Notes under the pieces: generated by a model
The model's database searches: none
Told to the model about the DNA's origin: nothing
What the model saw: only the letters and a program-made list of their open reading frames with translations
Made by a program: the position numbers and the translations under genes
In this document: positions 3-58,820 of the stretch, in pieces
How the letters are laid out: each line of letters starts with the position of its first letter
Numbering within the stretch: position 1 is the stretch's first letter
Source of the DNA: Candidatus Omnitrophota bacterium
Lineage (GTDB): Bacteria; Omnitrophota; Gorgyraeia; Zapsychrales; JANLHA01
Direction: 5' to 3'
Length of the DNA: 64,000 nt
Assembly: GCA_038222225.1 (NCBI GenBank)
Contig: JBBRHV010000006.1
Location: 1,626 to 65,625 of the forward strand

Positions 3-3000
3 TCTGATCAAAGGCCCAATTCTTCAGAGCCACTAGAAAACAATAAAGCGGTTGTTTCCAAGCTTCTGGCCGGGGTTGTGGTTCTGGTGAGCTTGGTATG
101 GCCGCTTGTTTTGTCCAAGGCCTTTGTATCAAAATATCTGGCGTTCACGCTTTGGGGCACATTGGGAGAAGGATATGTTTGGCAGCTCCTCACGTACAGT
201 TTTCTCCATACGAATCCTTTGCATTTGACCTTCAATGTGATCGCGTTTGTTTTCTTCGCGAATTTCATAGAGAGGGCAGTGGGGGTCAAAAGATTTTTGA
301 CTCTCTTTATCGGAGCAAGTGTTGCCGGAGCAGTCTTCCAGGTGCTGGCAATGGCCGCAAACAGTTTCACCTCGCCGGAATTAGCGGAGGCACTGGATAT
401 CACTCCTCTCATCGGACTCTCAGCAGTAGTAGCCGGGCTGATCGGAGCCTTCGGCGTTGTGCTGCGTGATCAGAAAGTGACATTCTTACTGTTGTTCATT
501 ATTCCGTTCCGCATCAAGGCGCAGCGGTTGGCGCAGATGTTGGTCACCGTCAGCATTGCGGCGATCATTTTCAATATAGTTCGCGGGGCCCAGGGCGGGA
601 TCGCCCACGGGGCGCACCTCGGCGGGCTTATTTTTGGTTGGGTTTATACGGAATATTTGCGGCGTGCAGGAAAGATCGATACGTTCATTATTGAAGAGGA
701 GAAACCCAAGGATCCTTCCGGAACCAACGCGGCGGTATTATCCAACTCAGATCCGGAAGGGGGAGTTGTTTCTTATCCGGCCCGTTCCAGCATCAGCGCT
801 GAAGAAAGGGAAGCAGCAAAACAGGGTACGGGCCCGGAAAATCTCAAGGGCTATGTCGTCAATTCACGGAAGATTCTGGGCGTTCCGGTTGAAGGTCTTG
901 AGATCAGTTATTCGGACCGCAGCGGACAAACAGTTGCTGAATATAAGCCGGGCCGTGTTGCCATTGATCTTTTGGGCCTTGGAGCCCGGGCGCCGCCGAT
1001 CGATCTCGAGCATTCTGCAAAATCCCGTCGCTTCCAGAGCATTATTCATGATGTTGTACGACAAATTATATTAGCTTCTCATTATTATGCCCTTTCAGAG
1101 AAAGATGTCCGTCAGGTTTCAGCCCGGCACTTTATCGGCCGGCAGCAAAAAGTTCAGAATTTTCTGGATCAGGAATTTAATCTTCGCGAATTCGGTCTGG
1201 TGTTTGATCCTGCCTATCTTGAGCTTTTAAGAAATTACCAGAGAATTGATCCTCAAATCGAAAGAATTAAAGAGCAGCTTGATCTCTTCAAGGGCGGGGC
1301 TGTGTCGTTTGAAGAGCTGTGTGAAGCTCTGGATGCGCGCGTTATTCTGAATGTGGCATCGCGTGCCTTATTTGAAGTGGGGAACAGTCCGTACCTGGTT
1401 AAAATTTACCGCGGCGGAACGCTGACGGCGAAGGCGTATGCCGCCGAAAAACAATTTTATAGAGAATATAACCCAACGGTCCAGCCGGAGCTGGTTTATT
1501 GTGATGACAATCTGCAGGCCTTGGTTGTGACGGATTTGAACCAGCTGGGATTGGTGCGCATGTTTGATTTTATTCAAGGGCCGTTCATTACGGAAGAATT
1601 GTTGGGTTGTTCGATTTCTTCCATGGCCCATGCCTTGGCGCAGCTGCATAGCAGCGCTGACGTGGCCTCGCAAACCGGTGAGCGGAAATTTGCTGAACTC
1701 AGGCATGAAGTGGACCGGGCGGTGGAGGTCTTAAGAGCGGCCGGGTTCCAAGGCCTTCCCGATGGAAAGAGCCTGGAGGATTTTCTTGCGCGATTCCAAG
1801 ATTCAGTAGTCGGAGAAAATGAACGATTGGTTCACGGCGATTATCTGATGTGGAATATTTTTGTTGACCCGGCAAGCGGAGAGGTGCGGGCCCTCATTGA
1901 CGGTGAGATGAGCGGTCTTGATTCTGCCGCTAAAGAGATGGCGAACACGATCCTGGGATTGATCGATGCCCGCAAGAATCATCCGTTCTTAATCAGTCAA
2001 ACTGCGGAGATGTTACGGTCGTTTTGGAGAGAATATATCCGGGAGACGAAAGACATTACCGGGCAGGAGATTTCTCCGGCGTTTGAGACTCGGGTCCATT
2101 TTTATTGCGCGGTCCAGTTGCTGATTGGCGCCAGAGTTGCGCATGAGAAATGGGCTAAATGGGCCCATTTCAGAATTGAGATGGCCAGGTTTTTCCTTAA
2201 TCAGGAAGCATTTTCATTGGAAGCTTTCATTGAGTTTTTGAATCATAATATTGGCAAACAACCGATCGGTTGGGTCGGGAATTTTGATGTTGCGACTCAG
2301 CACGGGCAGAGGCCGGGCTCGGGCGTTGAGATAATGATTGATGAAACAGGTTGGGCTGATTTCTTTGCCGAGGTTTGGGTTCCAGGAAACATCGGGGATC
2401 CGATTTTTGCATTGGGTATCGGAGCGGAATTACGTGTGACAAACAGAGACACCGGCGTTGTTTCGATTTGGAGGCCAGTGGAATTTTGTCATTTTGCGGG
2501 GAATAATTATCAATTTAGAGGAAGCGTGTTTTATCTCCAGGCGGGATCGTATGATGTGGAACCATCCTTCTCAGCGGATATGGGAGAAACGTGGTTTATT
2601 CCGCAACTCCCTTATGGCCCGTGTCATCTGACAGTGACAAAAGCATTGTCTGGGGAAGCGCCTTCAGAAAAGATAGTGAGTGTGGTCTTTTCTGACCTTC
2701 ACGGTGAGTTGAATGGTTTCCGTTCAGCGCTTGTAAAGCTCGGTATGATTTTACCGCAAAATAACCCGATGGAAGATATTTGGATTTCTCAAGATGTGAC
2801 GGTGGTTGTGGATGGAGATATCATGGATCGTGGTTTGCGACAGAAAGAGTTATACCACTATATCTGCCATCTCATGTTGACCGCCGAAGAAAGCCGTAAT
2901 CGGGTCATCTTTATCTTAGGAAATCATGAGCTGCTTCATCTTCAGGGGACTCCGGATGATTGGACAGCTCATGCGCTTACAGAAGTGATTAGAGAAGGTA

Positions 3001-6000
3001 TTCTTCGAGGAGATATTGTGGCAGCCGCGTATCTAGGTGGGCGTCTGATAGTTCATGCGGGAATTTTACCTTTTATTACCATGGATTTGATAAAGACATT
3101 ACGCCCAGGATTTTTGACTGTCGTTGCCCATCGGTCAGGAAAGTTCGTAAAGGATCTTACCGCGGTTGAAGTTGCCATCGAATTGAATAAAACACATAGC
3201 GTTCTTTCTGCTGACTCTATCGTGAATGAATTCAATCGGAGATTGCGGTTGGCGGTTGAGAAAGGCGATTATTCTGACGTTATTTTCCAGAGAGGGAACG
3301 CTCATTTTGGCGAGAACAAAAGGCCTGGAGAGTCGGGATATATACCCGGAGGCATATTCTGGGCAGACTATGAAAACGAATTGCGGCTGGTTGACCCGCG
3401 TGCGCTTATAGCGCAGATCGGAGGACATAGGGAGGGGAATGCGCTCCGTTGGACAAAGGGAGCCAGGGCTGTGAACGTCAATCTTTGTTATAAAGAGGGA
3501 TTTGGACGCAGCTCCGGAGTCGCTGTGTTTGATGGACAAAACTGGAAAGCTGTTTATTTTGATGGCCGGCCCATGCAAATTATTCCTGCTGTTATGGAGC
3601 GTGCTGTAAAACGACAGACAACAAATTCGGCAGCAGGTCAAGGCGGAACCAACGCGGCTGTTCTTGAGGGTGCGCCTTTTGAAGAACCGGAAACGGGTCG
3701 GATGAGCAGGCGAAGCATGCTGAAAATGCTGGCGCTGGCAGGAGCAAGCTTGCCGTTCATGACAACGACTGCTTTTGCTGATGAACCGACGGTTGATGAA
3801 GTTTTGACGGAACTTTTGAGCACTCAAACAGCGCATGGCCTCATTAAGAGTTTCAAGGGCACAACCGATACCTTCATGCAGAATCAGGCCGTGACCTATG
3901 ATCAGGCAGCCGCCGGGATCGCAGCTCTTGCGGCCGGAAGGACGGCGGAAGCGGTCAGGATTTTTAATTTCTTTTATAACCAGCATAATGGAGGAGATCC
4001 TGTCTGGAACGGGTTTGTGAATATGTATGATGCGACCCGCGGGGTCAAGGGCAACGAGCGCACGATCCACACAGGCCCGAACATCTGGATGGCGATGTTC
4101 AGCCTTCATCTTTATATGGCAAGCAGCGGTCAACAGGCCACGAAGGCCTTGACCCTTGCCAAAGCGCTCATGCAGTGGGCCAGGGGTTTGAATCATCGCG
4201 ATGGAGCGGTTGCCCTTGGACCGGTCCCCAATAATAATATTTTCTCAACAGAACATAACCTTGATTATTTCGCCTTCCTTAAAGGAATACAGTCGTTTTT
4301 GTCCGCGGCAGAAGCGGCGATCGTTCAAGCAGAAATGGACGGGGTTGGAACATGGTTAAAGACACATGCTTATGACCCGGCCAGAAGATTGTTCAAACGC
4401 GGAGCATATGAAAACCCGGTTGTCTATGCTACAGATACGTCAAGCTTTGCATTTTTATTGGGATCGCAGGTTCTGGAAGATTGGGGCATTGTTCGCTCAA
4501 CATTCATCGGCCAGTCCGATGCTGCCTATCGTGTCGGGACACGCGGTTTTGATGTGGCGAGTGTCGAGAACGCCAATTGGACCCCGCGTTCACGTTATGT
4601 CTTCAGAGAGTTTACTCTTCAGATGGCGGTAGGATTTTTGGTGATGGCTGATGATGAACACGATCGAGGCAATTTCACGCTGGAAAAAACGTATCGTGAT
4701 AAGGCTCAGCTCTATGCTTCTCAATCTGGCATAGATGGTGATTATCAATATTGTGAACAGACCGGGGTTCAGCTCTTTTATGATATTCCGAGCTGGAAAA
4801 CAATTAATGGTCAGTCGGCTTCGGTCATGGCCTGGAAGATATTTGCACTTCTCGGTTTCAACCCGTTTGGATTTGTTACAAAGGTGCGGCTGTCCGTCAG
4901 GCGTCTGGCGGCAACTGGAAATATGGAGTTGACTTTGCGCAAGGAAAGTATGGCGTCGCTCACTGCCGAGATTCTTTATTCAGATGACCTGGGAGATCAG
5001 AAAGAATGGAAGAGCGCCGGTTCAGTGGATTTGAGCGGCCTAAGGGCGGTTTGGGTCGATAACGGTTCTCAGACCACAACACATCCGTCGCAAAGCTCAA
5101 GGAGATTCTACCGAGTCTCGGCTGTAAATTCGTCTGTCCAGGGATTGGGCGCAGTCCATCAGGAGTCTAACGGTTTAGTGCCAGAGACGGTATTAATTGG
5201 GTCAAGCGCAGAGTATGGTCAAGAGTTCAAAGATGCGAATGCAGCAGTTTTGCAGGGGAAATTTGTTCAGACAGTGAAGACCAAAGGATCTGGGCTTAAT
5301 CGCTTTGACCTCGGGCGTTGGGGACGCGGGGCACTGCATTCAGTTCTTGCGCTAACACTGCTCACATCCGGTTGTGAGAAAAAAGAGGATACCCAGGGAG
5401 ATGCGTTGTCGGGAGTCGCGGTTCAGCCTGTTGATAGGAGCGCATTGGAGAACAGGATCAAGGAAGAGGTCCGGAAACTAGAGTATTCTGACAAGAACGC
5501 GGAGGATTTTGTAACGATGCTACGTCAATGGAAGAATGCTCAAGGCCAACCGGTTCTTACTGCGTGGGAGCAGAGCATTCTTAATGCCCGGAAACAATAT
5601 GAGCAGGGAGCCATGACAGCCGATCAGTTGGCCGGGATCGAAGCCGGGGTTGTTGGAGAAGTTGCGATGAGGATCGCTGAAGAATTTTCCGCGAATAATA
5701 ATGCTTTTGAATTGACCGATCTGATTGAAAAGAAACAGTCACAGTGTGTCAGCAGGTCAATGGCGGTAGCTATCGTCGGGAATGTACTTGGATTTAAGGT
5801 TGACTTTCTTGATGTTGATGCCAAGGAGATCAGGGCGATTGACGTTCCATTGGCGGAAAGAACTGTGGCGCATGCGGCCACCCTTGTACATTTGACCGGC
5901 GGGACCGTGATCATCGCCGATTCAGCGCTACGGTTTGTAAGCCGGCCGTTTTTAATGGAAGAAACCTACGCCGCAGTCGGGAACTATTGGGAACTTAAGA

Positions 6001-9000
6001 ACAGGAACGAACCGTTGTTGCTGCATGGACGAATCAGGAAGGCGTCTCTTTTAGCAGAGATTTATAACAATCGAGGCAACGCCTATGGAAGAGCCGGTCG
6101 TTATGAGGAAGCCTTCGCGCTGATGGCGAAAGCGATGGAAATCGATCCGGCATTGGCTGCAGCTTATTACAATCGGGGAGTTCAATATCAGGATCTAGGC
6201 CGGGTAGCCGAGGCAGTGGCGGACTATACAAAAGCGATCGAGCTTGATCCAAGAGATGCTGCTCCATATTGCAATCGGGGGAATATTTACAATACCGCAG
6301 GACGGGATGCTGAGGCTGTTGCTGATTATACGAAGGCCATTGAGCTTGATCCGCAATTAGCAGTGGTGTATTTCAATCGGGGAAATATTTATGGCAGATC
6401 AGATCGGCCAGAGGAGGCGATTGCGGATTTGACGAAAGTGATCGGGCTGAATCCGGAAGATGCCCAGGCTTATTACAGGCGGGCAGTGATTTACGGAAGA
6501 GTCGGTCAGTTAGAGAGCGCCAAAGCAGATCTCTTAAAGGTGCTGAATTTAAGTTCGGATGAAAAGCAAAAAGAACAGATCAAAGCTGCTGTTCGCAAGA
6601 TTGATGACATGCTTAAAGAAATGCCTAAGAAGAGCGCATCATCCAGCCACTCTGTTAAAAACGCTGAAACCAACGCAGCGATCCTTTATCCGTCACGCTT
6701 GGTGCCTGGACAAACGCCGGACTGGGCAATAAAATTCAGAACGACGTTGCCTAGCGATTTTGTTGAGGCGGCCGAGTCAGAGGATGGAGAGCAGGGCGTT
6801 GACAAGGTCATGTCGCTGGGGATTTGCCAGGATTCGCCGGACGTCTCGGAGCTTTTATCAAGATTTTATCGAGGATTGATGGAGAATAGCAACCCATCCG
6901 AGGTCCGCAGTCATTTGATTTATGACACGTGGTTAAAACTTAAAGAGAAGAAGATGGATGAATGGAACGCGACATTGGCGGTGTGGTTTACGTATGTGGT
7001 CTTTCAAAAAGCTTTAAGCATAGAAGCAAAACGATTAGCACAAAAGAATGCTCCGGCGCCTTCTGTTGAGGCATCCACAGAAGTCGCTACAGAACCATCT
7101 TCAAAAGGGCAGGAAGAAGGGGCGTCTGCCCGGGAAGATGAGCGTTACTTGGGGATTGTGATCGAGGTGGAAGGGTTTGGCCAGGTCACACTGACCGAAC
7201 GCATCGCCCGAAACAGCCGGACGCTTCTTTTTAAGACGAATCACCCTGGGCTTTTGATCAAACTTTTTGATCTGAACCACACCAGCATCGCCGGAGCCTT
7301 TGATCCGGTGATCGTCCAGAATTTTGAATTGGAACGCAATAATTTTGTCGAGGTCGCGAAGATCGATGAGCTGAGGCCGTATATTCCGCATTATTATCAG
7401 AGCGGCATCATCAAAGAGAGCAAGTACGCTTTCATCGCCATGGAATACATTGAAGGCACGGACTTAAAGAGCTGGCGGGAACAGGTTATTAACGGACGCA
7501 GTGAAAAGACTTTGACCGCCATTGAGTTCTGGCAGATGATGTCCCAGGCGATGAGCATTTTAAGAATATTCCACAAGTATGACCTGATCTTTTCTGATTA
7601 TAAACTTGAGAATATTCTAAGGCTGGCAGACGGACGTCTGAGGTTCGTTGATCTGGGAAGTGTTTTCCTTATTCATGGCTCGATCAAACCGCAGGATTTT
7701 CCGTATTCAGCAACAATGGAGGATTCGGAAGTTTTTGAAAACGCTGTCACTTTGAAGAACGGAAAGCCGCTGGCGAAAATTTCCGATATCTTCTGTGTGG
7801 GTGTGAGCCTGTTTGAATTCGCCACAGGCCAGGACCGTTTGACGCTGAGTCGTGAATATGCGGATATGCTTTTGACTCATTTACGCGTTATCAACCCGCG
7901 GATGTCTGAAACCCGGCTGTATTTTAATTATTATCCTCATCTTAAGGGAAAATTACCGACGCTGGAAGATCAGCTGCGTGAAGGATACGTCTTTTTTGCT
8001 GATTTTTGGCATTTGCTGCACGAAGTTCTTAAATATACCCAAGACGGTTATGAAGACATGGGACAGGCTGAAAAGGATGTTGTCCTGTTGTCGGCGGGGA
8101 TCGATTTTATCCGTAAGCAGCTTGGGCCTCTGGGCTGGGTGGCAGAGCCTGTTGCCCGGGCGACAGTTCTTAGACGCGTCCGGGTTGACAGTATTCATGA
8201 TCTGCTTTTGACGTTCCACAGCCCCTTGGGAGCGGAGGTCGTTGATGACCTTCGCCGTCACAACTGTTTTGTTGGTTGTGCTGAATCACAGTTCGGACAG
8301 CAGGGTTTCGTGGAACAGATGAGCACTTGGGACGTGCGTCTGAATTCGCACACTCAGCATTGGGCGGTCCAGGCGCCGGTCGCATTCAGGCATGATACAC
8401 AAGAAGCCGGTGCGTTGTTCTTGCAGCAGACCTACACGGATGAGGATGGCCATCGGTATTATCACATCACAAGCATGGAGGAGGCGGATGAATTGCCGAA
8501 CGGGGAAAAATTGACCCTGGCGCATTTGGAGGATGATCCGTACGCTTGGCTGGGAGCTCCATCGCAGGAAGATAATCAGGGTGGAAACTCTAAGAAAAAG
8601 CCTGTTCCAGCTCCTGAGAAAGAAAAGATAGTCATTGCGGGTAACGAAAGTGAGAAGCAGAAGAAAAAAACCAAAAGAAAATCCAGGAGGCAAAAGCTTC
8701 CAAAACCGACGACACGAGAGGAGGCCATCGCGTTGCTGATCCAAGCGGCCGGACGTGTTCCTTCGAACATTGCAAAAACCCCGCATCTTGTGGCCGACTT
8801 TTCACGCGGAGAGTTGACCGCAGCCAAGATCAAGAGCATGGCAAGGCAATGGGGGATTACGGGATATGATGTGCCGATCTCGAATTTGCCTTTTAGAGCG
8901 TATTCACGGAATGCTTCTTCAGACGAGCAAACAAATTCCTCTGTTCTGAACGAAGATATTTCAAAAACCGGACCTCCGCAGGGCTTTATTCATGTGGATG

Positions 9001-12000
9001 TCCATCCGGAAATTTGTTCGTTTAACGCCCTTGCTGAAGTTCAGCATCAATTTGGGGAGCTCACCACCATTGTTGTTGTTTATAGACGAGCCGCCGCTCT
9101 TCTTCAAAGGAAGCCGGTTTATGCCTCGCGTGAAAATGATATCATCATTCATTCCGACGGGATTATTTCTCAGGATCAGCTTATTTCGAAAATAAAAGGC
9201 CCTATCGCGCGCCTGTTGGTAACCGGCAATGAATTTGAAAGCTGTGTTGCCCGGGCTGTTTTTTCCATCAGAGAATTTATGCGGGATCAATATTCTGCCG
9301 GGTTTGTCTTGGATGTTCATTTTCCGATGGATTTGATCGTTGCCAATCGTCATGACTATCGCGATGGGGGATATCAAAAGATGATCGCGAATATAAAAGG
9401 CGGGGACTTTTTCTACAGCTATAAATTTCAAGCCCGTCGGATTGCCTATGACATCTATGATGGAACCGAACTGATCTGCCCTTGTGGGGAGGGAAGCGAA
9501 AATATTTCCAATCTTTATGTATGGCCATCTTTACAGAGCATGAAAGATGAATTAAGCCGAGGAACCGGCGGGACCAACGGGGCTGTTCTTGAATCAGGAG
9601 AGGGCGGCGCCTACAAGGAATTGATTTGTCGGTTTGACATGAAAGAAGATTATGAGGCGGATGATTGGAAGGAATCACGGGTTCTTAAGCGCGTGGCACT
9701 TATGAAACAGATCAGGTTGGGTTGGAAATATCCTCAGATGGGAGAACCGTCGGAACAATGGCTCAATGAGCTGAGAGAACTCGTTCTTCATCGTCTTTGG
9801 ACAAAGCTTCAAAAAGCACATCGTGGAGACATGTTTTTCCCTCAAGACATGGTTTCTCTCAATCGGTCGCTGAATCAGCCGTTTGTTTTTATCGTCGATG
9901 AACTTTTAAAGAACGCCCTTGATGCCCAGGCCTTGGCAGGGCAAAGCGGAAATGTCCATCTTGCGAGATCGTTGCAAGGCGGAACATTCGTGATGGCGGT
10001 TTCTGATAACGGAATCGGCGTCCGTCGCCCATTCTTAGGCTCAGAGCAGCTGGCTTGTATTGAGTCTTTGGCAGATCAGCAGAAGAGACGTAATACTCGT
10101 TTGGAAGCAAGTGATGGGGCTGGATTGATCTGGGTTCAGTATCTGGTCGCCATGCGGGGAGGTAAGCTTGAAGTCGAATCTCCCGGTCGCAATGAAGCCA
10201 GGACTACGGTTGTTGTGTCCTTGCCGGCGGATGCGTTAACGGTCATTGACAAGACGGGCTTAGGTTCTCAGACAAATGCTGCAGTCCTTCAAAAGAGAGA
10301 AGATGTCGCTACGCGGTTTATTTTTAGGTTAGCTGATCATTATGGTCTTTCTTCCACTTGTGATCCGCAGGAGATCCTTCAGGTTCTTCGTGCCAGGGGA
10401 ATCTTGAGTTCAGGGGAAGAAAGGGCGTTTGTCAGATATAGAAAAATTTTAAAACAGATGTATCCGGAGCTGAGCCTTGGGCAGGCTGAAGCACGCTGGA
10501 CGGAGGGCTACACATTTTTCGGGAATAATTCTTCTGAGGATTGGGAGCTTTCCGGACTGACGGAAGATTTTACGGTCATGGTTAAGAAACACATCGAAGG
10601 GATCCGGGCCGTTGAACACACCGATCATCCTGCGGATCAGGGCTGGTGGAAGGAAGATGGGCTGAAAATAAGAGTGATCCGGATTACGGATAGTCTTGAT
10701 TTAAAGGCGGCGTTACCGAACGAAAAAACAGAAAACCTGCCGCTGTCATCTGATGATGAAAACGGTTCACTGCACCTCTTTGAGTTTTTGTTCAAGAAGA
10801 TCTTTATTGAGCCAAAATATTTTGGCCTGGTAGCTTTCAAAGAAGGAAGGCCTGTTGGTGTATATGGGGTTTTTGTTTTAAATGATTGGAGAACGATCTC
10901 TGGGCGCGGATTATATGTCGTTCCATGGGAAAGGTATAAGAAAACAAATATCGGGTGGATGCTGGTCTCAAGGATGGCGGAATTGTTCGCGCTCAATGGC
11001 TATAAGTATCTTTATATCCCTGTGGCCAACCGTCCGTCGGCGCAGAAATTTTTTGAGAACGTGTCGGACAATACTGGACGCTTCCAGTTTTTCACAGAAA
11101 CAAAACGGAACGATGACGGAAAAATTCAAAAGGTTGCTGTGAAGCTGCAGGAAAGGTTCACTCCGGTTCAATGGGACATTGATCTTAAGCGTCAGATCGG
11201 CCAAGTCAACAGCGCGGTATTAAATACGAGCCTGTTGCAGCAGGTCCAAAATATGGAGGCAATGTTTAAAGCCTATGAATCGATTCTTAGTGACCATGGC
11301 CGACAGATACACGAGAGAGTTCGAGTGGTTTTAAGAGCAGCTTCTCAAGGCGTGATGAATGCAGAGCAGCAAAAAGAAGTTCGGGCGCTCGTGGCGTTGA
11401 TGCCTGATCCGCAGCATATTGATATTGAATCCGGCGGAGAAAAGAATTGGATCCGTTGGTTTGATTTAAGCCCGGAAAGACTGGGCGCATCTTTAGATCA
11501 AAGCATTGCCGATGGATGTGCGTGGCCGTGCCTGCATTGTGCGGCGTACAATGGCCATGCCAAAACAGTGATGGAGCCGCTTCCTGTTGTGATCGCAAAA
11601 ATTTTAAGCAGAACACAAACGGATATTATTTATCCATTCCAGTTCGATCTGATTTCTTGGCGGGATCTTTTCTTTGGAGTCGGCATTTCGGGATTAGCAG
11701 AGTTTATATCACGGTATAACCCGCAATATCAATTACGGTCATTGCCGACACGAGGTTGGGATAGCGATGATGCCTTTGTTCAGAACGAAGCCCTGCATCT
11801 TGCGCAGCTTAAAATCGCTAGTGGTATGTTCATTCTTTCATTCCATCTGTGCCATCAGCGGTATGACATCTTGCCGGCTATTGCGCAGGCGGTCAGGAAC
11901 GGAGACCGTGCAGAACTCGATGCACTGATCGATGTTTATGCAGCACGTTATGCGAATGTGATCGCTACGTTAAGTCCTGCGCTTGATCGGGTCAGCGTAT

Positions 12001-15000
12001 TTTTACCCGGAGATGTATACGCTCCCGTCTTTGAAGAGGCGACGATCCGGGCATTGAAAAAAGTGTTGAGCATCTTAAACGCTTCGCATGAAGAGATCAA
12101 GCCGCTTGTTGGTGAGATCAGTCATGGGGTCCTTGGGATCCGGGATATGAGATTTTTAAACATCGGCGGAAGGCAGATTTCGTTTATTTCTCGAACGATC
12201 CAACACGACGGCCGCGGGCGTGACTTTTTGGGACGATTGTGCATGGCTGAAAGCGGGGATTTGAACGGCAGGAAGGCGAATATGAATTTGCTTCGCATGG
12301 TCAAAGAACATGGCCGTCCGTATCCGGTTTCTGTCCTGTTTGCCTCTGGACGAACGATTGTCCAAACGCCGCAAGTCAACAGCGCGGTGCTTTTGACCGA
12401 ACCGCTGAGAAAAATGTTCCGCGCATTGAAACCGTGGCTGGTTATCGGCGCCGTTGCTGCCTGGGTGGGTTTTGAAAGAATGAATGCGAATCTCTTTTCT
12501 GGCCCTGAAGGGGGCGCGCATGAGAAATGGATCTTTCTCGACCTTGTTTTAGCCGCCGGTGTTATTGAAGAAATTCAATACAGGTTTGGCGTGTACAGGC
12601 ATGTCTTGAGGCCTTATTTCGGCGTTGTGCTGTCAGTCATCATCAGTTCTTTAGTTTTTGTGGCGGTCCATCTGATCTTTGCGGATGGGACCTTGATCGG
12701 TTTAATATATGTCCTGTTGTTTGGTGTAATTTCTGCCTTGATTTATGAAACCAGCGGCAAGCTGCGCTACGCTATTCTTCTGCACATGATCTCGAACTTG
12801 ATTTGGATCGGCATGAGCGCCGGTCCGTTTGCATATTTTATATTCACGGTCTCGCTTATGGCGCTGATGAAATTAAGCTTTGTTCTATTTATCTTCTATC
12901 ATACGGTCATCGCTGGCGTTAATGAGAGAGGAATCAAGGCCTTTGAACGTTTTGGAAAAACTGATTCGATTGATGAATGGTTAGGTCAAAAAGTTATCAG
13001 ACCGGCGGTGGCTGTGATTAAAAGCCGATGGGCAAAACTTGGCATGAATAAAATGTGGCGAGCAAAAAGCCCGGATGGAAAAGAACATCGCCGCATATAT
13101 GCTTTGGCATTCACAATCAGTGGATTGATCCTGACCTTGCAGTTTGCCGGAGACAGGATGTTCAGATTGTTCTATCCGGTCTCGCCAAGACCTTTGATCA
13201 CTCAAGAAGAGATGCGACAGAACATTCAGCGGGAGAGGGATAAGTTTGAAGCAGCAAAACGTGCCGCCCTCGCACAGACGCCAGGACTCACCACCAATGA
13301 TATTTTTGGTGTGATGTATTCTTACAAAGCGGATCTTTCATTGATCCGGGTTGTTTTATTCCATGACGGTCGCGCATACAGCGTGGAGGTGACATCGTCA
13401 GGTGAGACAATTGTCGATCCGGTAGCGTTATCATGCTACGAGGGCATTCTTACGCTGTTATTTTCCGACGGGCATATGGACAGACATCGTGAACTTCCTT
13501 TAAACGAACGGACTTGGAATGAAGTTGAAGCTTGGAAAAATAGATTGCCTCAAAAACCTGCACCTAAAGTACGGTCGAAACAGGGCGCGCAAAATTCATA
13601 TCATAAATTCAATACAGCGAGTTTGTACAAAGGGGTCAACAGCGCGGTGTTGTTGGGTTACTCGGATAAAGAAGCGTGGAACAAAGAGTCCGGGTTTTTG
13701 CTGGATACATTTTTTACATTTGAGCAGTATGTCGCGGCGGCTTTATATGATCCGGCCTGGGGATTTTATGGCAGTGGGAAGATCAAACTAGGGTTTGATT
13801 TCGGAACCATGCCGATCGCGCTGTCGCCGTTTTTCGGAGAGAAGGTCGCTGAGCGTGTGTACGAGATGTATATCGGCATGCTGAAAGCCGGTACCATCAG
13901 GCCGGATGAGCCGTTTTACATGATCGAGTTTGGGGCGGGAACCGGCGTGTTGGCAAGGGACGTACTGGCATTCTTTAGAGAACAAGCTAAACGCGGACGG
14001 GTTTATAAACGATTCTATGACAATTTGCATTATGTGATCAGCGACCGATCTAGCCCGCTGCTGGAAAAACAAAAGCAGAAGAATGCGGAGTTCTTGGAGG
14101 AAGGCAAGATCCAGTTTGTGATCGGCGATGCTCAAGAGCTTGAAACATTCTTGGAGAAAGAGCGTCCGATCAAGGGAGTTGTATTCTCCAATGAGCTTTT
14201 GGATGCCTTCCCGTCCCATAAAGTTTACATGGATGAACAGGGAGTGGCACATGCCATGGTCTCGATACCGGCTCTTGTCGATCAGCACAGTCCTGATCTC
14301 AGGCCTGGCAGCAGAGGCCGCCTATCGTCAACGATCAGCTTGTTGGCGCAAGTCGGAAAGGTGCTTAAGGCCCACGGGCTTTCGCTTGAAACATTAACTC
14401 AAAAAAGCCGTGAGTTCGCAGGGCGGTCGAATGTAGTCAAACAGATGGTGGATGATGGGGCCGTTGTTTTAAGTCGGGAGGATTTCTGCCGTATCCAGGA
14501 AATTTTCTCCGGTGAGAAAGTCAGTATGTATCGCGAGCTTATCCACAGGGTTATGGCGTTCTCTGAGATGACGGTTCCCGCGGCGCTGGTGCCCGGTTTA
14601 AAGGAATATTTAGATTTCCACAAAGATGAAATGAGGACGGCCCTTCAGGGAGAGTCAGGATGCGCAGTTGTCTCTTCCGGGTGGCTTTCGTTTGCAAAGC
14701 ATGTTTCCGGTTTGATCGATCAGGGATATGTCTTTACGATCGATTATGGAGAGACTACGGCGACATTGTTGAGCGCCAGGCGCAGAGAGAATTTTCCGAT
14801 TTCGATCTATCATCGACGTTTGGGAAGAGAGCGCAATCCTTATCTTCACCCTGGTGATGTGGACATATCGGTTGCGCCGGATTTCACGGTCTTTGCCCAG
14901 GCGGGGCTTGTTCATGGCTTGGTTCCGGTTTATCACGGGGAGCTCCGGTTCTTGCAGGCAGATTCAACCGAAAGGATTGACTCCGCGCAAACCGCTTCAC

Positions 15001-18000
15001 GGGTTAAGCGGCTGTTTACCCAGATGGCGATCGAGGCCAATATTGAAATTAATGCTCTTCGAGCACATGGATTTTCGGGTGATCAATCTCAGAGCATCGC
15101 TGCTGCGATGGAGCGTTATTTTAAAGAGGGTCGCCAGCCTGCGCCGGGAGAGCTTGACGCTAAAGCTCAGGCGGAATTTGACAGCCTTCTTCAATTCGGA
15201 CGTAACGATGCCGATGACAAATATCCTATCTGGGTTGAGCGTTTCTTGCATTCATCCGGGCATAAGATCTTGATCCAGCAAAAGGCGGGCACAGATCCAC
15301 ATTATTCGTTTGGCCAGCCGATCTTGCCGCTGTTTCAGGTGAAGCCCAAGACATCTTTGGCAGTTTCGAATGATTTTATCGGAACAAATTCATCCGTGAT
15401 CGACGATCAAAAGGTTGTTGTTGATATCCGCAGCCTGGCTGAAGATGCCTACGATGAAGCGTTTGCCACACGCCATTCGAATTATAGACGTCATGACTCC
15501 CATCGAGTCCATCATTGCGAGGTCAACACCAATATTTTGCAGGGATTCCTTCAGCTAAAAGGATACAGGGCTATTCAAGTTTTTCATACACCAAAAGGTG
15601 AACCGCAATATTTTGTTATGTTTATGGTTAACGGTGAGGTTTGGGTTGCTGAGCCAACTTGGCAGCTCATGATTCCTGAAGAGAATCGCACTGATGATCT
15701 TCCGCATTGTCTGGTTTTCAAAGAAGCGGATCTTGAGAAAATCATGCAACAATTCGGTATTGTTGAACATTGCCGCGTAAGTTGGCGCAAATCGGTGAGT
15801 GAGAATCGAGACAAACTATTTGAGACCGGGACAAGGGATTCTCTTGGGACGAACGGATCGGTTTTAAATTCAGGCATAACAGGTGTTAAAAAAGGAATAG
15901 GGTATGTGAGTTCGCTCTGGCAAAGGATGCGGCATGGGCGCGCAGACTCTTTTGATCTTCATCAGATGGAGGCTGCCTTCGGATTGCATGTTTTGGGACG
16001 GTTCCTTCGCCGTCGCCCAACGGTTCTGGTGATTCGCGGGAAGGGGCCGTTAAGCGGGCTGCAGGTTCTGGCAGAGGGCTTGGCCGCTCAAAAGTATAAT
16101 GTTGTTCTGTTCAATTATGATTACAGATTGCCGATCAGACAACTAAGCGCTTCGCTGATCGCAGCCTGGAGAGTATTCCAGAAGGCCCATCCACGGCGGA
16201 CGGAGTTTGGGGTGGTGGCGTATTCTTACGGGACAACAGTTCTTCGTTTGGCTGTGGTGAAATCGTTAGATGAGGTCTTCAGAGAGGGGCACATCATTGA
16301 GCTGGCACCGCTCTTGGGCGGATCTAGGAGCGCCTTGAGCGCATCGACGCCGGAGGGGATTGCCTTGGCGCGGTCTTCCGGCAAAGCGGATATGATCCAG
16401 ATAGGGAAGGCCTTGGATCCGAATGGTGAGTTCCAGGCGGAGTTGTTTAATGAAATCAATATTGGATTATATGAGGACCGGTTCAGCCGTGCTTCGCGTT
16501 TTGTGATTATCGCCGAAGGAGATGAACTTGCGCCGCGCCTGGACCGCCGGCCGGATCATTTCACGCGAAGGTATCAGGAGAATCTCGGAGAACATGTCGA
16601 AGTCCGTATTAAGCGGCAGCCGCATGATGCTTTGCCCTCAGAGCCTGCGGCGGTTACAAAAGTGATCGAGCGGTTGAACTCTCGACTTAGACCCGGTGTC
16701 GATACCGCTGAGAGAAAAGCAGACGGCCGTCAAGGGAGAGACATCAATAGCGCGGTGTTGTCCTCTGGGGCTGAGCCGGATTTTTCTTTCGACAAAACAA
16801 TTTCGCCCGATGTTCATCGTGCCAAGATTCGTTATGTAAGCCAAAAGAGAATCGCTCAGGATATGTCACGCACTAGCCATGACCGGGTTCGGGCTAAGGA
16901 AGCCTATTTGCTTGCAGTTCGCGATACGGCGATCAATTTAGCCCGGGCTAGGGATGAGCGGGTCGCTGCTGTACTGCGGAAAATATGTGATACGATCGTG
17001 GTTCGTGCCGGCCCTATGAAATATTTATTGGGGGCCTACCGTTCAAAAGAATTGTTCCTTGATGAATCTCTGCTTTCTGATCCTCAACAGTATTATGAAT
17101 TAATTCTCACATTATTGTATGAAGCGCGAGCGATTGCTTACCCGGCAGGTTTTAATGCGGAAAATGAGGGGTTTGCCCAAGATTGTTTGGTCAACGGGCT
17201 TATTCCAGAACGGATCCATCCGCGCACCGCCAAAGAGCGTCAAAAGATCGTGGAGGCGCTCAAGCTTTTACCAAAAATTCAATCCCCGGTGAATTATCTT
17301 TTAGTCGTGCCGATGTATAAGGAAATGTTCCGTTTGAGTCCTGAGGGCGAAGACGCGTTGCGGCGCAAGGTTTTGGCCATGGCTGTTCTGCATCGGTTGA
17401 ATCCGAATTTGAACGGCCGCATGCTTCTGGTTGATGACGGAACTCCATCCCTGGCATCTGAGGCGTGTGCCCGTGAGATTTGGCGTCAGATCCAAAAGGA
17501 ATTCCAGGCTCGCGGCGAGGTACTGGATCCGGAAGCCGTTACGTTTGCCCATGTCTCCGTTGAGGAAAAGAAAAGCAAGAAGAGCAGAAAAGGATGGGCG
17601 GTTCTGCGGGGGATGCGTTTGGCGCTGGAGCAGGGATGGGCAGATTATATTGGTTATACCGATACGGATATTTCAACAAATCTGCTTCAGATGCCGTTTA
17701 TTTTATGTCCCCTGATCGAGCGCACGGCTGACGTTGCGATCGGATCCCGTTGGGCCAGCGGCGGCAAACAGGAAGGTGTTTCGTTTAGACGGATGGTTTC
17801 AAGTAAAGTCTTTAATATGGCGGTTCATATGTTTCTGCCGGTTTTGTGGCGGATCAGGGATACTCAGCGGGCGTTTAAATTGTTTAACCGGTCAGTATTA
17901 AGAACCATTTTGCCGTATGCCAAGGAACCCGGCTTAGCGATTGATACAGAGCTATTAACACTTGTCCGTATCGCCGGACGGAAAATCATTGAAGTTCCTA

Positions 18001-21000
18001 TTGCATGGATTGATTCTGCCGAGGCAAGTACGATCGATCTGGGGAAGTCTGCCAAAGAAATGCTTTTGGCAATTATGCTGCAGTCGCGCCATATGTTCGA
18101 TCTCAGGCTGATTTTGAATCTTCGGCTTGCAGAGAGGCTGAACCCTGAAAGGAAAGGAACAGATCTCGAGGTTAATAGCGCTGTTCTGGATGCAGAGAGT
18201 TTAAGTTGGAGTGGCTTCATTGAATTTGAACATGCCGGAATGAAACTGCTGGCTATTCAACGCAAGACAGAAGGGCTTGCCGGACGCAGCCTGGCCCGCG
18301 CGAGTATCGAAATTTATCAGCTGATCAGAGGTGTTTCTGAGCCTGCGCTGACCGGATTTGTTGACGTCTGGTTCCGGGAAGACCGAACAGCGGCGGTCCA
18401 TAAAGAATTTTCTTGGAATGATTATTATGCCTTAGGTGTCTTGGGACATGCCCATGGGCCGTTGAAATTAGGTTATTCTTTAGACGGGTATGATACTGTC
18501 TGGAGCTATGGCGAACGCCGGTTTCTGGTTGGGGAAGACCATCCGGCCTTGTGGGTCCATGCGCAATCACGCAATCAGGGGTTAGGGAAGGTCCTGTTTG
18601 GGGCCGCAGCCGAACTGGCCCGCTTGCGCAATTGTCATCTGCTTCGTGTTGAAGAATGCCAGACAGGCGGGCGCAGTCTGTATAGACAGTTTGTTCCGGC
18701 GGATCAACAGCAAAATATTGACGGATCTTCGGTCGTGCTTCAGCTGCAAGGCCGTGATGCACAAAAGACGGGTGAATCTCAAAAGGAAACGAATGCGTCG
18801 ATTTCTGGCGTTGAGGCGGAGCATAACAGTTCGGCTGGGATGCAGGAAAGGTTGGCAAGACTTTGTGAGGAGGCCCTTCATCAAACAGTTTTCCCTGTTC
18901 GAGGCCAAAGCACGGAGGATGTGAAGCGGCTTCTTATCGAGGCGGATAAACAGACGCATAGTATTTTCAGATTCCATTTGGCAAGACTGGTTCTGGCAGA
19001 ATTAGGCCGTTGTTGTTCAGGGGCTAAAAAAGGATGGATCTTCGGTGATGTCGGGGAAGGAACACTTGATCGGATCGGTCCGTTGGGCGATATTGATCTC
19101 ATTATCGGAGTCGCGACCGAAGAAGATAAAGTTGGCGCGGCCCAAAATTTAGCGAGCATTAACGCGTATGTGACGTACTGGTTAAATAAGCTGCAGCATA
19201 CCAAAATAGAGGAGCTCATTGAAACAAGGAATGCGAAAAGAATTTTAACATTGGCAGAGATTGAGGGTAACCCGTTCTATATCCACAATGTCGACAGTCC
19301 TGCTTCGCTTCTTTTTGATGCCGAAACAATTTCAGATGTTCGACGCGCAAACGGATCTGAGTCTGCCGAGGCCAACAGCGCGATCCTGAATCGAGAGGAC
19401 GCGCTGGCCCGGCTTCGCAATCCGGATTATGTTGAGCCGCAAGAATTGACCAGCACCGATCTTTTGGGGACGTGTGAAAAAATCACGCGCTGCACAAATA
19501 CAAGAGTTCAATGCTCATTTGTTCCTCATCAGCAGCATGCTCCCGGAGGTGTCTATGTTGCGGCAGGCGTTGCGCAGACAGCAAGGATGACGGCAACGGG
19601 GCAGGTGCATACACAGACTCAATTTGAAATCACGATCAGGGCAGGTCAAAGAGAGGACATGAAACATGTTTTGCGCATGATCTTAGAGAAGCTGGTGCGT
19701 TTGAGGGATAAGGTGGCTCCGGAAGCATTGGACGCCTTTGATGTTCTGGCGCAAAGAAAGGCCGCCGACATTTCTCTTCATGCCGCAGAGGGAGAATCGG
19801 CGCTTAGGTGGTCACATATGATCGGGCTTAAGGTTGAGGCGGAGAAGCATTTTAATCATGTGCCGGTGAGCATTCAGGCAGATGTGATCTTGACTACGAT
19901 GCCCCGGAGGGAGGCGGCACAGCGTTTGGTTGTTAAATTAAGTCAGGAACAACGGTTTATGATATTGGCTCCGACCGGGTTAAGCCCGCGGGAGATTGTG
20001 GATCAGCTTCTTGCGAAAGAAACCGTTGAGGAGGCAATTAAAAATATCTTGAGGAAAGGGATCCTTCGCGGGATTCATGCCCATGATGATATCCGAAAAG
20101 CGTTTCAGGGCAGCGGGATTTTATGTGAAGCGCTCGTGTCGGATGCCAGGGTCAACCGGATCCATATTTTCAGCGTGCCCAAAAGGATCACGGTTTTAAA
20201 AAGTTATCACTCAACGCCGGAAGATGTGTGGGACGCTTTGCGCCGGGAGAAGGGGCTTAATAATCAGCTTCAGGCGGATTTTGCTGAAAGCGTTCATTCT
20301 CAGATTGCCGCTGATATAGTCATGCGGCGTTTAGGTTTGTGGCGTCTAAAAGAAAAGAAAGACGGGTCTCTGTTTAGAGTCTTAACCCGTTTATTCCGGT
20401 TGAGGCGTTCGTCTTACGGTTTGGCCCAGGCCAGGGAAGACGTGGCACACATCAATTCCCAAATGGCAGGATCTGTTGCAGACTCCCTGACGTGGGTTTC
20501 GGCACCAACATATTTCTTGAGTCTTTCTGATGAGGAACGCAAGGGCCTTGAGGAGGAGATCAAATTTCAACTTCGAAAATTTGGGCCGAAGGCTGTTGAC
20601 CAGGAAGAATTTCAATTGAAATTGAGAGAGTCGATCGCGCAGCGTTGGAGAATCCAGAAGGGGATGACGCCGGAAGAAGTTTTTGACCAATGCGCGCTGT
20701 ATTGGATCGTGGAAGTTGCAAATAACTTCATTCCGAAATTCAATGCCATGAGGTCACGCTCAGAGCGGTTTGAATTTTTGAAGGCCCAGCTTCCGCAGTG
20801 GTATCCGGCGTTGGTAGAGACGTTAGATTCTCTTCAGAGTTTATTAAATGACGGAAGTACATCTTTTGATGTTCGACAGCAGATAGGAACACTGGGCATC
20901 TCAGTTGCGGAACAGGACCTTTTATCAAAAGCATTTTTAGATGAATTTGGGTTTGTGCTGCTTTTGGGACAGTCCGCTCAGGGAACAAAGTCAGATTTAT

Positions 21001-56891: not shown

Positions 56892-56956
56892 CTGGCCGGG
56901 ATTTCTATAAAATGGTTTTGGTAAAAATAAAAAATTATATGAATTTTAGATTTTAT

Positions 56957-57009
56957 GTATAATAAGTGAACTTGCGGTTGTTTTATTAGGGATATTGAAG
57001 ACGAAGGAG
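56957..57009 (+). promoter_or_regulatory. Possible promoter -10 element and Shine-Dalgarno for the aldolase gene
   Basis: AT-rich 126-nt intergenic region. TATAAT at 56957-56962. AAGGAG at 57004-57009, 8 nt before ATG 57018. No convincing -35 found. Confidence 0.4.
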
Positions 57010-57017
57010 AGGAAAAA

Positions 57018-57968: not shown

Positions 57969-57999
57969 AAGACAGCGTAAAGGGAAGCGGCAGGTGATA

Positions 58000-58130: not shown

Positions 58131-58147
58131 CTGTTTTTAATTTGAGT

Positions 58148-58777: not shown

Positions 58778-58820
58778 TGTCTTGTGATGATAAGAGGCAT
58801 AGATATTGCAGGGTGATAAT

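Follow-up and report, generated by a model that had tools for sequence, protein, structure and literature searches.

Introduction

Giant genes of the bacterial phylum Omnitrophota encode products of up to 147,000 amino acids (aa), and whether such a product is one molecule or is cut up has recently become a puzzle. Two accounts come closest to the case presented here. West-Roberts et al. 2023 (bioRxiv 10.1101/2023.11.21.568195) described the 'Archaeovorin' type of Omnitrophota giant proteins and suspected proteolytic processing on account of C39 and S8 domains, reporting no cleavage sites. Nielsen & Lui 2026 (bioRxiv 10.64898/2026.06.07.730766) described a 'multi-enzyme metabolic cluster' class by the tiling of domains along the chain; it counts 5,761 Omnitrophota proteins of at least 10,000 aa, and the words cleavage, linker, junction, motif and polyprotein are absent from their paper. 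Those who described the giant proteins stated that analysis could go no further as long as cleavage points were not known, and a description of a recurring connector peptide was not found in open-access papers and bioRxiv. Here we analyzed a stretch of 64,000 nucleotides (nt), referred to as the window, from Candidatus Omnitrophota bacterium (GenBank assembly GCA_038222225.1, contig JBBRHV010000006.1, positions 1,626 to 65,625). The window is dominated by a single giant open reading frame (ORF) in which copies of a short peptide, [T/A/V/I]-N-[S/A]-[A/S]-V-L, hereafter the junction or connector, separate one module from the next.

Judged by the features tested, namely host phylum, a length of at least 10,000 aa and many distinct Pfam families, the ORF is an Omnitrophota giant multi-enzyme protein. 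It has in common with the published giants the phylum, an ORF exceeding 10,000 aa, interspersed transmembrane (TM) segments and near-unique sequences, as well as many divergent Pfam domains tiling the chain, including methyltransferase, HATPase_c, GNAT and kinase domains. It differs from them in that C39, S8, SecA-DEAD and dockerin domains are missing from the part of the gene seen in the window, and the papers give no inter-module motif. Giant proteins of this class are known already; the novelty seems to lie in the connector motif.

A peptide motif recurs throughout the giant ORF

The giant ORF occupies positions 3 to 56891 of the plus strand in frame +3, with the stop codon at 56889–56891. 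It is still open at the left edge of the window and comprises 18,962 codons without a stop, which corresponds to a product of more than 18,962 aa. The hexapeptide consensus can be extended at its N-terminal side to [G/E/Q]-[T/A/V/I]-N-[S/A]-[A/S]-V-L. The regular expression [NS][SA][AS]VL yielded 36 in-frame matches in the ORF compared to 0.33 expected from amino acid composition, and the strict form N[SA][AS]VL occurred 33 times in frame +3 and never in the five remaining frames or 3' of the stop codon. Using an iterated position matrix, 49 sites scored at least 14.9 bits, and everything else scored 7.5 bits or less. With a 10-column matrix, 49 sites reached at least 12 bits compared to a mean maximum of 9.3 bits in shuffled ORFs, which contained about one site of 8 bits or more. 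We therefore count 49 firm junctions and two to four weaker, probable ones (Table 1). The 55 junctions of the first-pass annotation of this DNA were correct in their order of magnitude and slightly too many as an exact figure. The range 8931–13652, to which that annotation referred, extends exactly from a TNSSVL hexapeptide through a VNSAVL hexapeptide and holds six junctions.

Numbered from the Asn residue, the amino acid information at positions -2 to +4 amounts to 1.3, 2.2, 4.5, 2.5, 2.8, 3.2, and 2.5 bits, respectively, and does not exceed 0.8 bits elsewhere. The information profile climbs from position -2 and drops abruptly past the Leu. Asn is the most conserved residue and is present at 46 of the 49 sites, with Ser taking its place at the other three. 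The residue preceding it is Thr at 22, Ala at 11, Val at nine, Ile at four, and Ser at three sites; the one directly following is Ala at 23 of 49. The residues past the junction Leu are mostly Asn, Gly, Asp, or Ser. Two segments between junctions have a length of merely 19 and 21 aa (31242–31298 and 40209–40271), with the junctions arranged nearly back to back; these segments are either spacer peptides or leftovers of deleted modules.

The junction is conserved as a peptide

The first-pass annotation had stated that the codons at the junctions vary freely and had taken this as an argument for selection on the amino acid sequence. The individual codons it listed were all confirmed: Ser(+1) is encoded by AGC at 11211, 12381, and 13641, by TCC, TCT, or TCA at 8937, 27687, 32352, and 49710, and by AGT at 28779 and 55062, and Leu is encoded by TTA at 738, CTT at 3663, TTG at 5250, CTG at 8946, and CTA at 21018. 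Across the 49 sites, Asn codons are AAT (25) and AAC (21). Both Ser families are used at position +1 (AGC 8, AGT 2, TCT 6, TCC 5, TCA 3), and Leu is encoded by five kinds of codons (TTG 16, CTT 10, CTG 7, TTA 6, CTA 3). Ala(+2) is encoded by GCG (23), GCT (6), GCA (4), or GCC (3), and Val by GTT (21), GTG (13), GTA (7), or GTC (3). Third codon positions at the junctions carry between 0.1 and 0.4 bit, save for 1.0 bit at Asn, where an AAY codon is forced. Pairs of junctions with a common residue use the same codon in 35.2% of cases, compared to 32.4% predicted by ORF-wide usage, and adjacent junctions resemble each other no more than random pairs do (p = 0.81).

We performed a simulation in which the observed junction residues were kept and codons were drawn from ORF-wide usage. 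The simulated junctions contained 17.1 ± 0.3 bits of nucleotide information compared to 18.46 bits observed, and 1.56 ± 0.19 bits at third positions compared to 2.34 bits observed. Thus, about 93% of the nucleotide signal at the junctions is explained by the peptide. The nucleotide excess is small but significant and resides chiefly in the use of GCG at Ala(+2) (23 of 36 sites, p = 0.003) together with ACA or ACC at Thr(-1) (20 of 22 sites, p = 0.002–0.007). Nearest-neighbor codon context failed to account for this residual bias. The notion of freely varying codons therefore holds to first order, usage being close to that of the whole ORF, and has to be qualified by the small preference for GCG, ACA, and ACC (18.5 compared to 17.1 bits). 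A few junctions have runs of 14–17 nt in common, among them the identical 17-nt run CAAGTCAACAGCGCGGT at 11205–11221 and 12375–12391. A search for DNA repeats recovered only five GGTNAAVL junctions, which form a weak 26-nt family of 73–92% identity. Neighboring junctions are not more alike than remote ones, by which gene conversion and a recent copying of junction DNA are ruled out as a general explanation.

The same pattern is observed between species. In 12 pairs of orthologous junctions from this and related giant genes (see below), identity extends to 64 of 72 residues, and the codons differ for 22 of these 64. The eight replacements (V/A, V/I, L/I, A/S, I/M, and S/T) are all conservative, and those at core positions stay within the residue set of the 49 window sites. 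At one junction, for example, NASVL is encoded by AAC GCA TCA GTT CTG in the window and by AAC GCT TCG GTC TTG in the related fragment L012. The linkers flanking the motif are variable and rich in insertions and deletions (indels) between orthologs, with the motif itself remaining invariant. Selection on the amino acid sequence is therefore supported by the share of nucleotide information that follows from the peptide, by the same-codon fraction, and by the residues kept in orthologous pairs: the junction is conserved as a peptide and is under purifying selection at the protein level.

Search for RNA structure and translation starts at the junctions

Folding energies of 61-, 101-, and 151-nt windows at the junctions equaled those of matched controls from the ORF (p = 0.23–0.58), and the same was true for the minus strand. 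Pairing of the motif bases was neither above nor below that of controls. RNAalifold predicted zero base pairs when applied to the 49 junctions with 30 nt on either side, and a search of the whole window against Rfam yielded no match. With folding energies, the covariation check by RNAalifold, and Rfam all empty, the earlier view that no RNA element underlies the junctions was borne out. A Shine-Dalgarno-like sequence with an in-frame ATG is present at four of the 49 junctions compared to 8.9% of control positions, which is no enrichment, and the density of in-frame ATG codons 3' of the junctions is not raised. Accordingly, internal translation starts at the junctions are ruled out by the absence of such an enrichment. 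Met is not enriched after the junctions either. Retention of an ancestral start Met behind the junction is likewise ruled out, as the alanine dehydrogenase module has Ser/Val at the position of the native Met.

Junctions lie in linkers between protein-sized modules

The 49 sites split the giant ORF into 50 segments, the shortest of 19 and the longest of 1,078 aa; their median length, 337 aa, is close to that of a typical bacterial protein. Each of the 48 modules that reach 60 aa scored as coding in the ORF frame when analyzed with a codon model trained solely on the flanking housekeeping genes. The segments are mutually unrelated save for two small paralog groups, and about 15 domain types occur among the 50 modules, none of which dominates. 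They comprise a rhomboid protease, an APH-type kinase with a metallophosphoesterase, a near-consensus TPR, a Ser/Thr kinase, HATPase_c (twice), GNAT (five times), a CPBP/Rce1-like protease, two methyltransferases, HPr, a threonine-dehydratase-like pyridoxal phosphate (PLP) enzyme, alanine dehydrogenase, HTH, and a SEC-C motif. Multi-TM segments (rhomboid, CPBP, and segments with eight, five, and six TM helices) are interspersed with soluble ones.

None of the 49 junctions is located within any of the 20 Pfam domain envelopes, where 6.6 would be expected (P = 0.0007). A whole enzyme is covered by each of the modules for alanine dehydrogenase, the PLP enzyme, and GNAT. In the case of alanine dehydrogenase, residues 2–3 of the solved enzymes align 28 aa past the junction Asn, with about 17 residues left between the end of the enzyme and the junction that follows. 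The share of hydrophobic residues is 16% from -10 to -3 and 21% from +5 to +12 compared to 35% overall, and Gly, Ser, Thr, Asn, Gln, and charged residues are enriched in these flanks. The A-V-L of the motif forms a small hydrophobic island amid hydrophilic surroundings.

The sequences of the modules have few counterparts elsewhere. A protein search with aa 2978–4550, the region of the first-pass finding, returned one weak HATPase_c match among 5.8 billion proteins, characterizing these modules as near-orphans. The first 466 aa matched only an unrelated rhomboid of Chitinophaga in a genome collection and nothing in a metagenome collection. Structure prediction by AlphaFold2 without an alignment was uninformative for the pair of PLP-enzyme and alanine dehydrogenase modules (mean predicted local distance difference test score, pLDDT, of 34).

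Two of the modules deserve separate mention. The TPR module at about 6051–6593 (aa 2017–2197) matched an engineered consensus-TPR protein in phmmer with E = 1e-110, followed by the TPRs of O-GlcNAc transferase; from its sequence, it could be a peptide-binding module. A zinc-binding SEC-C motif of the type found at the SecA C-terminus and in YchJ is located at 52632–52685 (aa 17544–17561), 11 residues past a junction, and the module that it opens also has a GNAT domain. SecA-derived domains are frequent in giant Omnitrophota proteins according to the literature.

Junctions are breakpoints in related giant genes

A giant gene occupies the same locus, beside the HMGL-like gene, in four related genomes, and a fifth fragment, L012, is orthologous to an internal part of the window (Table 1). 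The relatives with the motif emerged via synteny. A word-based search with an alignment of the 49 junction windows resulted in 13 candidates, none of which scored; given the relatives found via synteny, this does not speak for absence of the motif elsewhere. In a local trial, junctions scored close to 0 bits each against a HMMER profile of the motif, which was blind to known relatives, so that the C-terminal module served as query instead. Junctions of the form N[SA][AS][VI]L were found in a similar context in the giant genes of all these relatives. The syntenic giant genes were compared over the retrievable 2,300–3,600 C-terminal residues. The last module is the sole one that this part has in common with the window (57–60% identity), and the similarity starts exactly at TNAAVL. 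The remaining cargo of the relatives, as judged from L010 aa 930–2269 and the L003 gene product, is nearly all different and includes glutamate dehydrogenase, PPDK/PEP-utilising domains, HIT, and SPASM/radical SAM. The window MnmA is 81–84% identical to the MnmA of the syntenic giant-gene loci, and cargo turnover is thus very fast compared to the surrounding housekeeping genes.

Comparison of the relatives revealed four module indels, involving five modules, in which both ends are located exactly in the junction motif and one intact junction remains each time. A glutamate dehydrogenase module of 1,339 aa is present in L010 and absent from L005, a 582-aa module is present in L005 and absent from L010, two modules (window aa 7002–7450) are present in the window and absent from L012, and a GNAT module is present in L012 and absent from the window. 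As these whole-module indels end exactly in junction motifs, the junctions are evolutionary breakpoints, even in the absence of a conserved DNA sequence at these sites. Selection sparing only those indels that respect modules would produce this pattern, and microhomology between junction copies may contribute. A junction can also arise within a protein: the sequence GGVNAAVLVP (nt 23241–23270, core VNAAVL at 23247–23264) sits inside a module, and the same spot is occupied by MAEA, ITAA, MADA, or VAGA in the paralog within the window (56364; 56391–56405) and in four homologs from relatives. Since the motif is absent from all of these, its acquisition has split the module.

Two further observations concern the relatives. 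Near the start of the L012 contig (nt 263–297), the reading frame of the giant gene changes and two overlapping genes were called, which may reflect either a mistake in the assembly or a genuine frameshift. A 737-aa fragment, P0126 (L014, GCA_035477245.1 DATIKT010000092.1), is a remote relative of the C-terminal module and contains four copies of 'AML' compared to about 0.2 expected, all in polar contexts (GAMLAD, TADSAMLTV, GRDSAMLAA, and TDKAMLAD). To judge by these contexts, D-S-A-M-L resembles a version of the N-S-A-V-L connector particular to this lineage, as would be expected if a protease and its site evolved together. The contigs of P0126 and of P0129, likewise from a more distant relative, were too short to provide a gene context.

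Candidate proteases in the giant protein

Two modules of the giant protein resemble intramembrane proteases. The rhomboid module at the left end of the window (Pfam Rhomboid, E = 2.6e-22) has HxxxN, GLSAVV (Ser), and AHGAH (His) motifs that presumably match the catalytic residues of GlpG in an alignment to the E. coli sequence. Its PDB match is 2nr9, the GlpG homolog of H. influenzae, which supports the alignment to GlpG. In the CPBP/Rce1-like glutamic protease module (Pfam Rce1-like, E = 5.5e-13), the motifs EEIQYR (EExxxR), FVAVH (FxxxH), and HMISN (HxxxN) are intact, and its nearest relatives in NCBIfam are MrtJ and MrtS, two sorting proteases whose matches are under their cut-offs. On the strength of these motifs, both modules are potentially active and are candidates for the junction protease, and as candidates only. 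The acting protease may be the rhomboid module, the CPBP module, or an enzyme encoded beyond the window.

Function of the junctions

With moderate confidence, we propose that the junction is an exposed linear motif in a linker and serves as a protease recognition or cleavage site of a cellular polyprotein. Exposure, conservation as a peptide, and a position at module boundaries across species are hallmarks of polyprotein cleavage sites, which makes protease recognition the most likely role. The first-pass annotation had left the choice between a protease, docking, or folding signal undecided; the evidence favors an exposed linker motif and, most plausibly, a site of presumed proteolytic cleavage. 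A sequence-specific protease would recognize the exposed hexapeptide in a flexible hydrophilic linker between independently folding modules and, by cutting one translation product at some 50 standard connectors, would set free individual enzymes, regulators, and membrane proteins. Cleavage of such giant proteins is also suspected, independently of the motif, in the literature. The scissile bond would be located after Leu, with P6–P1 being x-N-[SA]-[AS]-V-L. This position is the best guess because conservation halts abruptly there, and an information profile that rises from -2 and drops sharply past Leu is typical of P-side specificity. At the connectors, modules could be gained, lost, or split without harm to their neighbors, and relatives would differ by whole modules because the same connector would flank every one of them. 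More tentatively, we envisage an episymbiotic or free-living bacterium with a polyprotein of more than 19,000 aa that would stand in for a region normally made up of several operons, would release about 50 unrelated proteins, and whose connector would double as an evolutionary 'plug' for the in-frame insertion, deletion, or splitting of whole genes. A connector polyprotein strategy of this kind, with lineage-specific variants such as the D-S-A-M-L pattern, may be general to Omnitrophota giant genes.

Several points weigh against cleavage at the junctions. No soluble protease domain occurred among the Pfam and NCBIfam matches in the window. A protease may hide among the roughly 30 modules, out of 50, in which no domain could be recognized, or may be absent altogether, and the 5' part of the giant gene lies beyond the window. 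Rhomboid and CPBP proteases are intramembrane enzymes with known substrates adjacent to TM segments, and most junctions are located between apparently cytoplasmic enzymes. The two 'modules' of 19 and 21 aa would be odd sizes for released proteins, and a motif of six residues could as well be a binding site. Cleavage, the position of the scissile bond, and the acting protease are what we infer rather than what is directly seen.

Were the motif indeed a binding site, the giant protein would stay intact, and the junctions would dock the TPR module, a chaperone, or an assembly factor, or would act as structural spacers; we consider this unlikely. TPR domains bind extended peptides, a near-consensus TPR module is part of the same protein, the motif is short and exposed like many peptide ligands, and a dedicated soluble protease was not found in the window. 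Nielsen & Lui also see many giants as membrane-anchored, with their bulk on the cytoplasmic face (bioRxiv 10.64898/2026.06.07.730766). However, a pure spacer needs no six specific residues kept across species amid drifting flanks, and some 50 identical binding sites on one chain would have no obvious purpose. Multi-TM modules alternating with soluble enzymes are easier to reconcile with a release of parts, and the modules resemble complete stand-alone proteins in size and content. The preeminence of Asn (46 of 49 sites, 4.5 bits) and an acting protease that is so far a candidate would also agree with processing that needs no protease, either by 2A-like skipping of a peptide bond or by Asn-driven self-cleavage via succinimide formation, but we regard this as very improbable. 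Ser, which replaces Asn at three sites, is incapable of Asn chemistry, yet fits a binding pocket. Features of inteins or Asn cyclization are missing: the Ala following Asn at 23 of 49 sites provides no intein-like nucleophile, no intein or autoprocessing domain flanks the junctions, and conservation is limited to about seven residues. The motif also bears no likeness to the 2A peptide motif D(V/I)ExNPGP, which is not known to work on bacterial ribosomes, and the junction consensus has no conserved Pro or Gly.

The breakpoint pattern raises the question of a DNA-level element, with the junctions as scars or targets of the cassette insertion or recombination that built the gene. The module indels ending exactly in junctions, the junction gained within a module, the slight nucleotide excess (GCG at Ala(+2), third positions at 2.34 compared to 1.56 bits), the weak 26-nt family of five GGTNAAVL junctions, and the 17-nt run common to two junctions all point this way. 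Nevertheless, this explanation is largely refuted, and we give it hardly any weight. The junctions draw on both Ser families, on five Leu codons, and on every Val and Ala codon, the peptide accounts for 93% of their nucleotide information, and orthologous junctions swap codons and retain residues. The motif is always in frame, neighboring junctions are not more alike than distant ones, and inverted repeats or conserved structures do not occur at the junctions; for an attC-like recombination site in particular, the 49 junctions show no conserved nucleotide core, excess folding, or consensus pairs. Breakpoints at junctions are also expected from selection, with only module-preserving indels surviving. 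Least probable of all is an RNA-level signal, by which RNA would be processed at the junctions or translation of each module would start internally, in favor of which there is the regular spacing of the junctions and nothing else. Against it stand folding energies and accessibility equal to those of controls, no consensus structure, no Rfam match, Shine-Dalgarno sequences with ATG at no more than four of 49 junctions (8.9% of controls), an ATG density that is not raised, and a Val codon that is GTT, and hence no start codon, at 21 of 44 sites.

Comparison with other processed proteins

In function, viral polyproteins and MARTX toxins come nearest to the giant protein. Among systems with established processing, the polyproteins of picornaviruses, potyviruses, and coronaviruses are cut by 3C-type proteases at conserved short sites. 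As in the giant protein, one ORF comprises many unrelated proteins, including membrane-spanning ones, with a boundary motif of 5–7 residues that is located in exposed linkers and conserved at the peptide level. In contrast, the giant gene is cellular and chromosomal with housekeeping genes on its flanks, its modules number about 50 compared to about 10–16, a chymotrypsin-like or papain-like protease was not recognized in it, and its cleavage is something we infer. In the light-harvesting polyproteins of Euglena and dinoflagellates and in polyubiquitin, mature proteins are separated by a short conserved linker that is removed by a protease. These resemble the giant protein in that several mature proteins would originate from one translation product, and differ in that they consist of tandem copies of a kind, whereas the modules here are unrelated.

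A bacterial parallel is provided by MARTX and clostridial toxins, in which C80 autoprocessing takes place after Leu in unstructured inter-effector segments with the consensus small-Leu-small (PMC2900308). Both the toxins and the giant protein are large bacterial proteins of exchangeable modules, and in the latter Leu is the last conserved junction residue and is located in a hydrophilic linker. However, Peptidase_C80 and RTX gave no match in the 18,962 aa (Pfam, NCBIfam), the junction motif is longer, centered on Asn, and would have Val at P2, the cargo resembles ordinary metabolic and regulatory enzymes, and the modules are ten times more numerous. The recognition motif of rhomboid proteases has a small residue at P1, a large hydrophobic one at P4, and a hydrophobic one at P2' (PMC2941825). 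In a register in which [T/A/V/I]-N-[S/A]-[A/S] precedes the cut and V-L follows it, the junction would offer a small P1 and a hydrophobic P2'. However, P4 would be Thr or Ala at 33 of 49 junctions, so that the rule for P4 fits in part. Moreover, the rhomboid motif is TM-adjacent, whereas the junction flanks are hydrophilic and most neighboring modules have no TM segment. Rhombosortase with GlyGly-CTERM and MrtJ with JDVT-CTERM are comparable in that rhomboid and CPBP proteases with intact catalytic motifs occur in the giant protein; their sorting signals are C-terminal, whereas the junctions are internal repeats, and the NCBIfam matches are below cut-offs.

A connector peptide under selection at the protein level provides explicit predicted module boundaries, by which the question of cutting becomes directly testable. 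With these boundaries, giant proteins can be annotated and their structures predicted module by module. A single motif position is also defined at which non-tryptic termini can be sought in existing metaproteomes, and the connector is suited for simple reporter constructs. If cleavage were true, it would represent a new mode of bacterial gene expression with stoichiometric co-production of dozens of unrelated proteins from one ORF. Such processing would, moreover, be a natural equivalent of the 'fuse-and-cleave' systems built by synthetic biologists, and a cellular counterpart of the viral polyprotein strategy. The module indels at connectors show how giant genes grow and diversify.

Table 1. 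Junctions, selected modules, and related giant genes. Junctions are given by their hexapeptide and lie on the plus strand in the coding frame; regex, match to [NS][SA][AS]VL; matrix, site of the position matrix.
Feature	Position or accession	Strand	Remarks
Junction TNAAVL	723..740	+	regex, matrix
Junction TNAAVL	3648..3665	+	regex, matrix
Junction ANAAVL	5235..5252	+	regex, matrix
Junction TNAAIL	6669..6686	+	matrix
Junction TNSSVL	8931..8948	+	regex, matrix; opens range 8931–13652
Junction TNGAVL	9573..9590	+	matrix
Junction TNAAVL	10272..10289	+	regex, matrix
Junction VNSAVL	11205..11222	+	regex, matrix; 17-nt exact run common with 12375 junction
Junction VNSAVL	12375..12392	+	regex, matrix
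Junction VNSAVL	13635..13652	+	regex, matrix; closes range 8931–13652
Junction TNSSVI	15384..15401	+	matrix
Junction TNGSVL	15849..15866	+	matrix
Junction INSAVL	16743..16760	+	regex, matrix
Junction VNSAVL	18171..18188	+	regex, matrix
Junction TNASIS, weaker variant	18789..18806	+	matrix
Junction ANSAIL	19371..19388	+	matrix
Junction TSASVL	21003..21020	+	regex, matrix
Junction TNASVI	22155..22172	+	matrix
Junction TNASIL	22350..22367	+	matrix; L012 ortholog is TNSSVL
Junction TNAAVL	22908..22925	+	regex, matrix; orthologous junction in L012
Junction VNAAVL	23247..23264	+	gained within a module, dividing modules 20 and 21
Junction SNASVL	23844..23861	+	regex, matrix; L012 ortholog retains NASVL, 4/5 codons differ
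Junction ANSSVL	27078..27095	+	regex, matrix
Junction ANSAVL	27681..27698	+	regex, matrix
Junction SNSAVL	28773..28790	+	regex, matrix
Junction VNSSVL	30411..30428	+	regex, matrix
Junction TNAAVL	31239..31256	+	regex, matrix
Junction TNAAVL	31296..31313	+	regex, matrix; 19 aa past 31239 junction
Junction VNSAVL	32346..32363	+	regex, matrix
Junction TNAAVL	32952..32969	+	regex, matrix; ahead of PLP-enzyme module (PALP domain aa 11045–11342)
Junction ANAAVL	34107..34124	+	regex, matrix; ahead of alanine dehydrogenase module
Junction TNSAVV	35490..35507	+	matrix
Junction SNSSVL	36768..36785	+	regex, matrix
Junction INSAVL	37269..37286	+	regex, matrix
Junction VNSSVL	38805..38822	+	regex, matrix
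Junction ANASVL	40206..40223	+	regex, matrix
Junction TNAALL	40269..40286	+	matrix; 21 aa past 40206 junction
Junction VNSAVL	43383..43400	+	regex, matrix
Junction ANSAVF	45372..45389	+	matrix
Junction ANSAVL, top-scoring site	46185..46202	+	regex, matrix
Junction ANAAVS	46959..46976	+	matrix
Junction ANSAVL	48891..48908	+	regex, matrix
Junction INSAVL	49704..49721	+	regex, matrix
Junction INAAVL	52383..52400	+	regex, matrix
Junction TSAAVL	52596..52613	+	regex, matrix
Junction TNAAVQ	53889..53906	+	matrix
Junction TSSAVL	54570..54587	+	regex, matrix
Junction ANSAVL	55056..55073	+	regex, matrix
Junction TNAAVL, last	56067..56084	+	homology to relatives' giant genes starts exactly here
Probable weak junction VNSSVQ	5124..5141	+	10-column matrix 10.0, above nearly all shuffles
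Probable weak junction GNSAIL	44595..44612	+	10-column matrix 9.8
Module 0, rhomboid intramembrane serine protease	3..725	+	aa 1–241 in the window; candidate junction protease
Module 9, CPBP/Rce1-like intramembrane glutamic protease	12378..13637	+	aa 4126–4545; candidate junction protease
Module 49, conserved C-terminal, hydrophobic tail	56070..56888	+	57–60% identity to L003, L005; paralog of modules 20, 21
L004/L010	GCA_035452745.1 DAOTBU010000001.1		giant-gene product 13,533 aa, apparently complete
L003	JGI 3300009771		giant-gene product at least 6,501 aa
L005	GCA_029561995.1		giant-gene product at least 8,756 aa
L013	JGI 3300010346		giant-gene fragment
L012, fifth fragment	GCA_035453615.1 DAOTDK010000078.1		orthologous to window aa 6729–8343

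Gene neighborhood and further features of the locus

The earliest in-frame start codon of the giant ORF is located at nt 78 and would truncate the first TM helix of the rhomboid; the giant gene therefore starts upstream of the window. An independent Logan assembly, which matches nt 54530–59152 at 100%, bears out its 3' end. The lineage is contained in the samples SRR19962012, JGI 3300009771 and 3300010346, and ERZ795054/55/61. The genes 3' of the giant ORF encode an HMGL-like enzyme, KDPG aldolase, a radical SAM protein, MnmA, and MutL. The sole named organism among the syntenic loci compared by MnmA is 'Candidatus Omnitrophota bacterium', and the remoter MnmA matches, at about 50–56% identity, are mostly named Omnitrophica or Omnitrophota. 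GC skew is positive over the whole window (positions 1–64000, 0.11–0.23) and peaks at 36–52 kb, within the giant gene. A tandem duplication of 180 nt at 41104–41463, in the 1,038-aa module 37, gives rise to two 60-aa copies that are 91% identical and is the sole sizeable recent DNA repeat in the giant ORF.

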